Shown here: positions 75-2,031 of the stretch, piece by piece
Numbering within the stretch: position 1 is the first letter of the stretch
Layout: each line of letters begins with the position of its first letter
From: Methanobacterium ferruginis
GTDB taxonomy: Archaea; Methanobacteriota; Methanobacteria; Methanobacteriales; Methanobacteriaceae
Direction of reading: 5' to 3'
DNA: 64,000 bases
NCBI RefSeq assembly: GCF_030296715.1
Contig: NZ_AP027738.1
Span: 1,892,026 to 1,956,025, forward strand
Notes under the pieces: generated by a model
What the model was told of the DNA's origin: nothing
The model's input: only the letters and a program-made list of their open reading frames with translations
Database searches by the model: none
Made by a program: the position numbers and the translations under genes

Positions 75-235
75 TTATATTTTAGGAGACCAGAGTTTTA
101 GTTCTTTTAATCTTGTAGGGATGCCATCATCTCCACAGGACTCCAGCCACCCATTTTCGGATCTGATTATTTCAGAACTTGTTGATGAGTGTAGGAAATC
201 TAAAAGTCCTCTATTTCTAAGTATGGATTTCTCTA
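75..235 (-). repeat. displaced 3'-end fragment (about 50 codons, copy 3) of the methyltransferase-like gene; att-like imperfect direct repeat of 1492-1650, sharing an identical 19-bp core ttaggagaccagagtttta at 83-101
   Basis: Aligned by eye to 1492-1650 at about 75% nucleotide identity. The translated reverse complement gives ILRNRGLLDFLHSS...GWLESCGDDGIPTRLKELKLWSPKI*, against ...IIRNRGLLDFLHSA...KLWSPKV* in the intact copy. Confidence 0.7.
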
Positions 236-284
236 CCAACACTTATTAACATTTTCATAAACCTCCCCCATAAGAAGGACCCCT

Positions 285-1502
285 ATGAATAAAGAAGATG
301 AAACATTAATAAAAACTTTCTTCAGTGGCAACAGCTATGCCAAAAATACTCAAACTTTATACACTCTAGCCCTTACTAAATACTCACAATACCATAAACT
401 CACACTAGAAGAATTACTAACTGAAGCAGAAACCGAAGAAGATCAAGGAGTGCGTAAACGTCGTAGGAAAATAGGAACGCGAATAACAGAGTTTAAATCA
501 GCACTTGAATACATGCAAAAGTCTCCTAGCACAATAAAGTCTTACACTAATGCCATACGTTCATTTTATGACTATTACGATGTAACGCCACCAAAAATTA
601 AATTTAAAAACGGTAGTATTGGATTAGAAAAAAATTATGGTCGTCTACTTAAACAAGAAGACATCCGTAAAATGTGTGATGCCGGAGACACACGAGCCCG
701 AGCCATAATATACACCCTGGCCCTGACAGGTTTAAGTCAGGCAGAGCTCAGACGTATTAAAATTTATCAATTATTATCAGCTGCAACTGAAGTACTTGAA
801 AGACCTGTTAAGAGTGTAGAGGAATTTATCGATCTGGAAGAAGAACTCAACAATGAAATCCTCACATTGTATATCACCCGGGAAAAGGTGCATCATCGTT
901 ATTTTACATTTTTACCTCCTGAAGCCACACGACAAATAATTGCATATCTCCGAGAACGTGTAAACAGTGAAAACGAGAAATTACACCCTTCAAAATACCA
1001 CAATAATGGCCTATTATTTTTAAGCGTAAGTGGAAATCCACTCAGTAATTATGCACTCAGAATTCTCATAGTCAGATGTGGCCGGTATGCTGGATTCGAA
1101 TCAACATCTGAAAATAGGGCATATAGTTACTGGCGTGGCCATGCACTCAGAAAATATTTCATAAGCACCTTTAAAAATAAGACTGGTGAGGGTGAACTGG
1201 CTGAGTGGTTGGCAGGTCACAAGCCACGATTCACTGATGAAACATACTGGTACAAAGATATTGATGACCTGAAAGAAAAATATATGGCAGCCCTGGAATA
1301 TTTAAGCATAGAAAACACTCGAGTTAAAGACATTGAAACCAAGGATTATAAAGAAGTCATGAAAAACTTACCAGTGGTGGGTTGGGTTTTAGAATTACTG
1401 GATGATGATCCTGAATTCCAGAAAGAAGCCAAAAAAGCATTGAACCGTAAGAAAAAAATATTAAAAAACAATGAAAATTACTTGTTAATCTTTATACTTT
1501 AG
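285..1502 (+). CDS. int: tyrosine recombinase / phage-type integrase
   Basis: 405-aa ORF. Box II-like motif RGHALRKYF, and AGHKPRFTDETYWY gives the His...Tyr nucleophile region. LALTGLSQAELRR resembles box I. The stop codon overlaps the 19-bp repeat core at 1500-1518, and the gene is flanked by att-like direct repeats. Confidence 0.8.
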   Translation: MNKEDETLIKTFFSGNSYAKNTQTLYTLALTKYSQYHKLTLEELLTEAETEEDQGVRKRRRKIGTRITEFKSALEYMQKSPSTIKSYTNAIRSFYDYYDVTPPKIKFKNGSIGLEKNYGRLLKQEDIRKMCDAGDTRARAIIYTLALTGLSQAELRRIKIYQLLSAATEVLERPVKSVEEFIDLEEELNNEILTLYITREKVHHRYFTFLPPEATRQIIAYLRERVNSENEKLHPSKYHNNGLLFLSVSGNPLSNYALRILIVRCGRYAGFESTSENRAYSYWRGHALRKYFISTFKNKTGEGELAEWLAGHKPRFTDETYWYKDIDDLKEKYMAALEYLSIENTRVKDIETKDYKEVMKNLPVVGWVLELLDDDPEFQKEAKKALNRKKKILKNNENYLLIFIL

Positions 1503-2031
1503 GAGACCAGAGTTTTAATTCTTTTAATCTAGTTGGTATCCCATCATCACCACAAGACTCCAACCATCCCTTATTGGAACTGATCTTCTCAGTACCTTTT
1601 GCTGAGTGCAGGAAATCTAAAAGTCCGCGGTTTCTGATGATAGTTTCACGAGGTTTCAAAGTAGATGACCAAATATAAAACACTTTAAATGTAGTGTCCG
1701 GATGATAACCTCCACCAAGATCAACTGATAAAACATCACAGCCACCTAATTCGTTTACTTTTCGAGCAACTTCTTCCAGTGTCTCATGAAGACGCACATC
1801 ACTCTCGATAAACTCAATAGGAGTGCTAATTTCTTTAATTAGTTCATCTAATTTTTCTTTAGACTGGGAACCTTTATCCAATGCAATAATTTTACCTTCA
1901 AGTGCTAACTGGGCTATTATACGAGTGGAGTTACCAACATGGCAGCCAAGCTCCACTACAACATCATCCTTTTTTATAATGTCTCTTAGGACCTGTCTAT
2001 AAACTTCGATATCGTAAGCAACATTGATCAT
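1492..2031 (-). CDS. class I SAM-dependent methyltransferase-like protein (intact copy; target gene of the integrase module)
   Basis: 179 aa. Motif-I-like VVVELGCHVGNSTRIIAQLALEGKIIALD near the N-terminus. The last ~150 bp are duplicated at 75-235 and the first ~400 bp are duplicated at 54768-55175. Confidence 0.6.
   Translation of the reverse strand: MINVAYDIEVYRQVLRDIIKKDDVVVELGCHVGNSTRIIAQLALEGKIIALDKGSQSKEKLDELIKEISTPIEFIESDVRLHETLEEVARKVNELGGCDVLSVDLGGGYHPDTTFKVFYIWSSTLKPRETIIRNRGLLDFLHSAKGTEKISSNKGWLESCGDDGIPTRLKELKLWSPKV

Follow-up and report, generated by a model that had tools for sequence, protein, structure and literature searches.

Gene order at the locus

We analyzed a 64,000-nucleotide (nt) stretch of Methanobacterium ferruginis (NCBI RefSeq GCF_030296715.1, contig NZ_AP027738.1, forward-strand positions 1,892,026 to 1,956,025; hereafter the window, numbered from its first letter), in which the gene for a tyrosine integrase (int) lies between two copies of the 3' end of a methyltransferase-like (MT-like) gene. 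The findings pointed to a 54.5-kb tailed provirus (221–54766) that split the host MT-like gene at the hexamer TTCTAA and carries its own complete copy of that gene, a reading to which we assign a probability of about 0.87. Apart from this virus-borne copy of the target gene, the locus is an ordinary prophage insertion. The features on which the argument depends are listed below; related loci from other genomes and metagenomes are designated by L numbers, and MT_e denotes the virus-borne copy.

1–60, minus strand: start of aroA' (ADH synthase, a DeoC-type aldolase), truncated at the window edge; its reverse complement translates to MIGKKIRIERIINRKTGRCV, and window 1–224 is 99.1% identical to L033 10391–10614
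75–220, minus strand: displaced 3' fragment of the host MT-like gene, last ~48 codons and stop; 81% identical to 1491–1646 and contiguous with aroA'
215–220: attL crossover core TTCTAA; matches attB (L033) up to TTTCTAA and is viral thereafter
221–54766: integrated head-tailed archaeal provirus, 54,546 bp, recognized by the empty site in L033, its viral genes and collinear early genes
221–284, plus strand: attP-derived arm and int upstream region; no host-gene homology, conserved in the viral arms of attL in L017, L035 and L036
285–1502, plus strand: tyrosine integrase gene of the provirus, 405 amino acids (aa); PF13495 above and PF00589 below cutoff
1492–2031, minus strand: complete virus-borne paralog of the target gene (MT_e), 179 aa; full open reading frame (ORF), convergent with int with an 11-nt overlap
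1632–1637: position in MT_e homologous to the att core, TTCTGA and not TTCTAA
54761–54766: attR crossover core TTCTAA; viral up to ...CCCTAC, matching attB from TTCTAA on
54767–55159, minus strand: 5' fragment of the host MT-like gene, codons 1 to ~131, a pseudogene; 97.6% identical to L033 9989–10404

The protein encoded by the complete gene belongs to a family of 534 relatives that are nearly always 179 aa long and are named class I S-adenosylmethionine (SAM)-dependent methyltransferase in the sources. Its own profile matches were sub-threshold (Methyltransf_24, 24.9 against a cutoff of 26.3; FtsJ, 22 against 24.1), and the only NCBIfam match, to MnmM, was far below threshold. The motif ELGCHVGNST was invariant. 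The AlphaFold2 (AF2) model was of low confidence (pLDDT 60), and only its N-terminal Rossmann half was usable; this half best matched the small tRNA methyltransferase MnmM/YtqB, with a TM score of ~0.5. Judged from these sequence and model matches, "methyltransferase-like" is a fair description that assigns no substrate. No homolog of the methyltransferase was found in phage records.

The host gene is split into two halves 54.5 kb apart

The repeats bracketing int align over 156 nt with 81% identity (74–229 against 1491–1646), the alignment reaching to about 233/1650, and confirm the imperfect direct repeats described in an original prediction made from the letters of the window and its ORFs. 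They share an exact 20-mer, TTTAGGAGACCAGAGTTTTA, at 81–100 and 1498–1517, which had only these two matches in the window even when up to 3 mismatches were allowed (0.04 expected by chance), and which overlaps both the int stop codon (1500–1502) and the last codons of the 179-aa gene at 1492–2031. A whole-window repeat search revealed a third copy of the gene that had escaped the original prediction: 1632–2007 was repeated at 54761–55135 with 80–90% identity, and this 5' partial copy as a whole (54755–55159) was 80–90% identical to 1626–2031. That prediction had named a longer duplication enclosing the repeats as grounds for abandoning it, and this condition held in part. The 474-aa gene beside the viral copy and the 472-aa histidine kinase gene near the host 5' fragment were compared as possible members of such a duplication and proved not to be paralogs.

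In a three-way alignment, the left copy consisted of the 3' ~150 nt of the gene only and the right copy of the 5' ~400 nt only, with an overlap of ~15–20 nt. Joining 75–220 to 54767–55159 gave 539 nt collinear with the 540-nt middle gene, the sole length difference being a one-base deletion, indicating that the left and right copies are the two halves of one gene, now 54.5 kb apart. The rebuilt host gene has 179 codons and differed from the intact gene of L033, a metagenome contig that is the closest relative, in 7 substitutions plus a single-base deletion within a G6 run; the L033 protein differed from the rebuilt host protein in 2–3 residues. The deletion lies in the G6/C6 homopolymer at 54837–54842 of the host 5' fragment. 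The apparent fit of the two fragments (124 aa + 55 aa) to 179 aa was set aside as partly coincidental, since the 124-aa ORF ends by this frameshift and not at the junction. The 3' fragment (75–220) was 87% identical to intact host genes, compared with 76–84% to virus-type copies.

L033 provided the empty site. Its positions 9989–10404 matched window 55172–54757 (97.6% identity) and its positions 10391–10614 matched window 224–1 (99.1%), and the two matches met with a 14-nt overlap, so that window 224 is joined to 54757. The host flank at 60540–64000 was 98% identical to this contig. Protein scans of genome and metagenome collections yielded 20 loci, in all of which except L002 the gene was uninterrupted; it was intact between the same neighbours in L001, L003–L010, L023/24 and L026. 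In these empty sites the gene is followed after 14 nt by the DeoC-type aldolase gene aroA' (a spacing seen in L001, L005 and L033) and then by the gene for dehydroquinate synthase II; upstream of it lie homologs of the genes found at 60.5–64 kb in the window.

The original prediction had described a module of about 1.4 kb (about 95–1500) inserted at a 19-bp core within the 20-mer, at the 3' extremity of the MT-like gene, with the gene at 1492–2031 made up of a host 5' part and a 3' end supplied by the element, and a degraded integrase of a tandem array further left. The repeat and the exact 20-mer around int favor such a module, as do, taken alone, L002, L017 and L036, where int or an int remnant lies beside a full-length gene, with host genes on the opposite side and no virus body. 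However, the 20-mer encodes KLWSPK, occurs in the intact genes of L001 and L023, and is found with 0–2 changes in the uninterrupted genes of empty-site genomes; it is therefore conserved coding sequence and not a recombination core. In addition, the host 5' half lies 53 kb away and abuts the other half in L033, int is collinear with the virus genes to its right, and L002 switches from host to viral sequence within gene nt 138–228 and not at the 20-mer or the 3' end.

The left edge of the window likewise spoke against a further module. Homology between the left and middle copies stopped 3 nt past the stop codon, and the minus strand of 1–60 encodes the start of aroA', 99% identical to L033, on which ground a degraded integrase at this edge was rejected. 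The string NTLLFIF followed by a stop is present (frame 2, 62–85), and its likeness to the int end NYLLIFIL is an antisense reading of two homologous gene ends; because none of the int homologs has the tail NNENYLLIFIL, a resemblance to it carries no information on integrases. No second tyrosine recombinase was found in the window. With the module model already contradicted by the L033 empty site, we consider it very improbable. Its recognition of site-specific integration into the MT-like gene was upheld by the unsplit gene of empty-site genomes, and the left copy is indeed the displaced original 3' end, 75–220 being joined to the next host gene as in empty sites. The two repeats flanking int are thus this displaced host 3' end and the 3' end of a complete viral paralog.

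Attachment sites

Comparison of the flanks with insertion-free relatives, which had been proposed as a check, defined attB through the L033 empty site. The aligned sequences read ...CCTCTAT TTCTAA TTATTGTTTCACG... for attB (L033), ...CCTCTAT TTCTAA GTATGGATTTCTC... for attL and ...CCATCCCTAC TTCTAA TTATTGTTTCACG... for attR. TTCTAA, which lies within a 13/16 match, was the only sequence common to all three; it stands at both junctions of the provirus, near codon 125 of the gene, and together with the 14-nt overlap in L033 it gives precise boundaries. In four independent attL junctions (the window, L017, L035 and L036), the switch from host to viral sequence occurred at the identical nucleotide. 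The attL sites of L017, L035 and L036 carry TTCTTA or TTCTAA, apparently following the host type; attB was not recovered at these loci.

The predicted attP reads ...GATATAGCCATCCCTAC-TTCTAA-GTATGGATTTCTCTACC... Its center, CCCTAC-TTCTAA-GTATGG, would have 5/6 inverted arms around a 6-bp spacer, the layout expected of the core site of a tyrosine recombinase. The junction lies 65 bp upstream of int in the window and ~78 nt upstream of it in related viruses, as estimated from integrated L011 and free L012.

The recurrent junction also bears on whether a mobile element is needed at all. That one gene occurs three times, whole or in part, within 55 kb could result from a segmental duplication or rearrangement of the host gene, with the integrase present by coincidence. 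Yet the two partial copies complement each other exactly and meet at a single hexamer, the DNA between them is viral, and the same junction nucleotide recurs in four loci beside homologous integrases. Contradicted by both the empty site and the recurrent junction, a duplication of this kind has next to no probability.

The integrase

The int product was 100% identical to a Methanobacterium ferruginis "site-specific integrase", 70% identical to the integrase of L017 and 58–62% identical to those of related archaeal viruses and proviruses. Its N-terminal SAM-like domain was detected above cutoff (Phage_int_SAM_4/PF13495, 30.3 bits against 27). The catalytic domain scored below cutoff (Phage_integrase/PF00589, 24.0 bits against 27.1), and its homologs carry precomputed PF00589 matches; the XerA model gave 52 bits against a cutoff of 220. 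Residues K201, H286, R289 and Y321/Y333 were invariant across 14 int homologs. The gene is an intact 405-aa ORF with the junction 65 bp upstream of its start codon, indicating that integration did not split int in the SSV manner. No relatives of the integrase turned up when viral contigs were scanned.

Two peculiarities of the protein were observed. Box I (residues ~137–156, nt ~693–752) reads TGLSQAE in int and all close homologs, without an arginine at the canonical G+2 position; R137, which is nearly invariant, may substitute for the canonical box I arginine. The C-terminal tail NNENYLLIFIL (1467–1502) was absent from 13 aligned homologs and is encoded by sequence that overlaps, on the other strand, the 3' end of MT_e.

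The DNA between the two gene halves is viral

The gene pair by which we recognized a tailed virus, a large terminase and an HK97-fold major capsid protein, was present: the large terminase gene lies at 23879–25447 (phrog_979 at 1e-82; Terminase_6C/6N) and the gene for the HK97-type capsid protein at 31557–32435 (phrog_264; Linocin_M18/Major_capside matches). A PG_binding endolysin-like gene was found at 49545–50516. In the related viruses L011–L022, int occupies the left end, and the genes after it are homologous to those at 5.2–9.3 kb of the window and stand in collinear order. Because int and the early genes share this collinearity, int belongs to the large element. Further features of the window were as follows.

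2059–3483, minus strand: 474-aa protein, cargo next to MT_e; L035 has Peptidase_M78 and DUF4411 at the same place
5219–9329, plus strand: early-gene block; collinear by tblastn, 30–70% identical to the genes after int in L011–L022, including OX365879.1 ("uncultured archaeal virus")
55160–64000: host chromosome right of the provirus, with genes for TMEM175-like, PAS histidine kinase, HI0933-like flavoprotein and class II aminoacyl-tRNA synthetase proteins (Pfam); syntenic with L001, L023 and L033

A complete viral paralog of the target gene

MT_e was 88% identical in amino acid sequence to the rebuilt host protein. The synonymous divergence (dS) between the two genes was 0.51 and the ratio of nonsynonymous to synonymous divergence (dN/dS) was 0.13, indicating that the viral copy is neither recent nor decaying; it has been kept under purifying selection. 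The arrangement was found again in L035, a second provirus of the lineage at the same site, in which a partial host 3' fragment, attL, int, the MT gene and viral genes follow one another, the last being homologous to window 3670–4036 and 5399–6015. Copies linked to int were more divergent, both from the host genes and among themselves, than the displaced 3' fragments of the window and L017, which were 87% identical to intact host genes. A virus-type protein signature, FYIW...HSAKG.EKISS, was common to MT_e, L002, L035 and L036.

At the position homologous to the att core, the codons read, on inspection of the nucleotides, ATC ATC AGA in all int-linked copies (window, L002, L017) and ATA ATT/ATA AGA in more than 20 host-type genes, with ATA ATT AGG in L009; the differences are synonymous. 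From this we infer that the synonymous TTCTGA of the viral copy, in place of TTCTAA or TTCTTA, would keep the integrase off it. The complete viral copy would likewise replace the function lost when the host gene was split.

MT_e was also seen to be mosaic. Its nt 1–270 were 91% identical to the allele of this host and 76–80% to every other copy, whereas nt 271–540 were 83–84% identical to this host's allele, comparable to their identity to most other copies (71–88%). The pattern suggests gene conversion or exchange between the provirus and host copies.

Shrunken remnants in other genomes

Three loci carry int or its remains without a virus body. L017 has on a single contig the dehydroquinate synthase gene and aroA', then the 3' fragment and int, and after int a full-length copy of the MT-like gene and the gene for the host histidine kinase. 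L002, compared with the empty-site contig L023, showed 2 mismatches over nt 1–2831 and 56 over 2832–3144, followed by int; its host-to-viral switch falls within the 5' portion of the gene, at a good distance upstream of the att position. In L036, a chimeric gene is followed by the N-terminal part of int, interrupted by stop codons, and then by attL, the 3' fragment and aroA'. In the window, the viral and host 5' parts were 89–91% identical over ~400 nt. Remnants consisting of int and a chimeric host/viral gene probably arose, as these sequences suggest, by homologous recombination between the two gene copies, with deletion of the virus body.

L002 (CAZWUL010000101.1) is filed as a metagenome-assembled genome of an "uncultured Atribacterota". 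It was 98% identical to the contig of L023, which was found with the Methanobacterium MT query, and is probably misbinned.

The remnants raise the possibility of two events at the window locus, namely an old, inherited scar of int and the 3' fragment, as in L017, and the later arrival at the same place of an unrelated provirus without an integrase (2032–54760, with the 5' gene fragment). Loci with a scar alone exist in at least three other genomes, and the resemblance of the first 270 nt of MT_e to the host allele would fit this sequence of events, yet gene conversion within a lysogen explains that mosaic equally well. Such a history further needs a 53-kb virus without an integrase, whose early genes are nevertheless collinear with those of viruses using a homologous int; had a virus integrated anew into a scar, another int would lie beside the new attL, where none was seen; and in L035 int, the MT gene and viral genes are contiguous in a second provirus. 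Two events are accordingly an unlikely history for this locus.

With a single integration event as the preferred reading, the course of events is as follows. The integrase recombined attP, ~65 bp upstream of int, with attB inside the 179-codon host gene, crossing over at the TTCTAA hexamer near codon 125. The host gene was thereby split, its 3' fragment (75–220) staying with aroA' and its 5' fragment (54767–55159), now also frameshifted, coming to lie at the far end, and the virus brought a complete gene copy (1492–2031) that would stand in for it. The ~400 bp of 5' homology between viral and host copies would then permit recombination that deletes the virus body and leaves int, the displaced 3' fragment and a chimeric gene, as in L002 and L017, with further decay in L036.

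Weighing the interpretation

Several observations weigh against this interpretation or parts of it. The shared core is short, just 6 bp within a 13/16 match; att sites of 8–13 bp are on record for archaeal elements (PMC8371274). Neither an excised circle nor an attP junction was found, an exact search of viral contigs for the predicted junction being negative, and any activity of the provirus is putative. The frameshift at 54837–54842, which lies in a homopolymer, may be a real pseudogenising mutation or an error of sequencing. L002 may represent an assembly switch between gene copies rather than a real deletion, an explanation that does not fit L017 or L036. The three or four viral copies have a common descent, and a single inherited change may account for the ATC ATC codons that they share. 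That the viral copy complements the split gene, and that its att-like site is protected, are proposals drawn from sequence. Finally, the complete target gene is placed away from attP, and the interpretation offers no explanation of how it was acquired.

Taken together, the parts suggest a broader scheme in which the viral paralog would complement the split gene and make lysogeny cost-free, TTCTGA would shield it from the integrase, and recombination would repeatedly displace the host allele. We regard this combined scheme as possible but doubtful. If it is true, the 3' two-thirds of a conserved host core gene would be permanently replaced by a viral allele and a solo integrase left behind, a provirus-driven xenologous gene displacement already visible in three other Methanobacterium genomes. 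The series from empty site through full provirus and int with a chimeric gene to decayed int, seen across related genomes, offers a testable case of provirus loss by homologous recombination that leaves viral sequence in a host core gene.

Defined att sites are available for few of the temperate viruses that infect methanogens. Here the boundaries of a previously undescribed 54.5-kb Methanobacterium ferruginis provirus were fixed to the nucleotide, with attB in a gene conserved across the genus, and the attB/attP pair CTCTAT-TTCTAA-TTATTG / CCCTAC-TTCTAA-GTATGG could be tried as an integration tool for Methanobacterium. For annotation, the locus teaches that a paralog carried by a virus can create the misleading picture of an integrase between two att-like repeats.

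Other features of the provirus and its flank

The 474-aa cargo protein (2059–3483) had no match in Pfam, PHROG, NCBIfam or PADLOC. For the cargo genes beside both att sites, searches with PADLOC, Pfam and PHROG were negative apart from weak PADLOC matches of a 592-aa protein encoded close to the right end (51390–53168, minus strand), namely PDC-M19A at 1.6e-9 and a type I specificity-like region; from these matches the protein is possibly defence-related cargo.

On the minus strand at 4203–4853 lie three tandem paralogous small genes of 78, 78 and 46 aa, the last an RHH_1 match, each preceded by a conserved repeat of ~35 nt. Two 53-nt direct repeats at 6820–6935 in the early region, 85% identical, each contain a near-perfect palindrome, GTGTAAACGTA...TACGTTTACAC; they could be an operator or an origin. 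Between the early genes and the packaging and capsid genes (from ~23.9 kb), a 2652-aa ORF (10289–18247, minus strand) has NosD/beta-helix and CHB_HEX_C/Fn3-associated repeats and contains internal 300-nt repeats (15423–15722 and 16893–17192, 94% identical). An AT-rich stretch of 153 nt (18567–18719), upstream of a gene starting at 18686, was 82% identical to L033 6095–6247, which is host intergenic sequence. A Mom-family gene within the provirus (21268–21971, Pfam 2.4e-48) ends within a tRNA-Val(TAC) gene (21894–21971), the sole tRNA/Rfam match in the window.

In the host flank, 55160–60540 was variable: these 5.3 kb were entirely absent from L001, L002 and L023, and L033 carries part of them rearranged, with 55540–56907 at 95% identity and the histidine kinase gene at only 72%. 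Two tandem 56-nt units, 84% identical, lie at 62576–62687.

Comparison with known systems

Within the searchable literature, which is incomplete, neither this provirus nor any Methanobacterium virus with its target gene on board was found to be described, a result that is weak evidence of novelty. Integration into coding regions has not yet been tested experimentally in archaea (PMC8371274). The nearest relatives are the uncultured Methanobacterium-associated tailed viruses and proviruses related to OX365879.1 (L011–L022), which share with the present provirus a left-end int of 58–62% identity and collinear early genes. They differ in their sites of integration, which lie behind YdjM/DUF488 genes or beside a gene for an OGG-type glycosylase, and in having no methyltransferase paralog after int, no MT homology being found there. 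An apparent similarity of the host side of attL in L011 to the MT 3' end was dismissed, since tblastn detected no homolog at that place.

Among described systems, psiM100/psiM2 of Methanothermobacter resemble the present element in being tailed, in infecting Methanobacteriales and in having a tyrosine integrase from the same broad family, 27–30% identical to int over 72–89% of the protein (30% for psiM100 ORF29). The psiM100 integrase is much more distant, and the psiM100 att sites are intergenic, leaving the neighbouring genes unaffected (PMC8371274). Among proviruses that insert into archaeal protein-coding genes at short att sites, Msmi-Pro1 of Methanobrevibacter smithii uses an 11-bp att site in a cation-efflux gene (PMC8371274) and resembles the present case in the insertion by a tyrosine integrase into a Methanobacteriales coding region and in a very short shared core. 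For such proviruses that review reports no element-borne copy of the target gene, whereas here a complete paralog under selection is present.

The classical solution is a different one. Phage 21 and e14 integrate in icd of E. coli, where attP-adjacent sequence rebuilds the split gene across the junction. Restoration of the target gene by attP-adjacent sequence is also given for tDNA islands (PMC4383910). The present provirus agrees with this type in that a displaced target fragment lies at one end of the element (75–220, next to aroA') and a working gene persists. No such 3'-end replacement was found here, however, since the element sides of attR (54700–54760) and attL (221–284) have no homology to the gene and the host 5' fragment reads into stop codons. 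In place of a reading frame restored at a junction, this provirus carries a separate whole gene 1.3 kb from attL.

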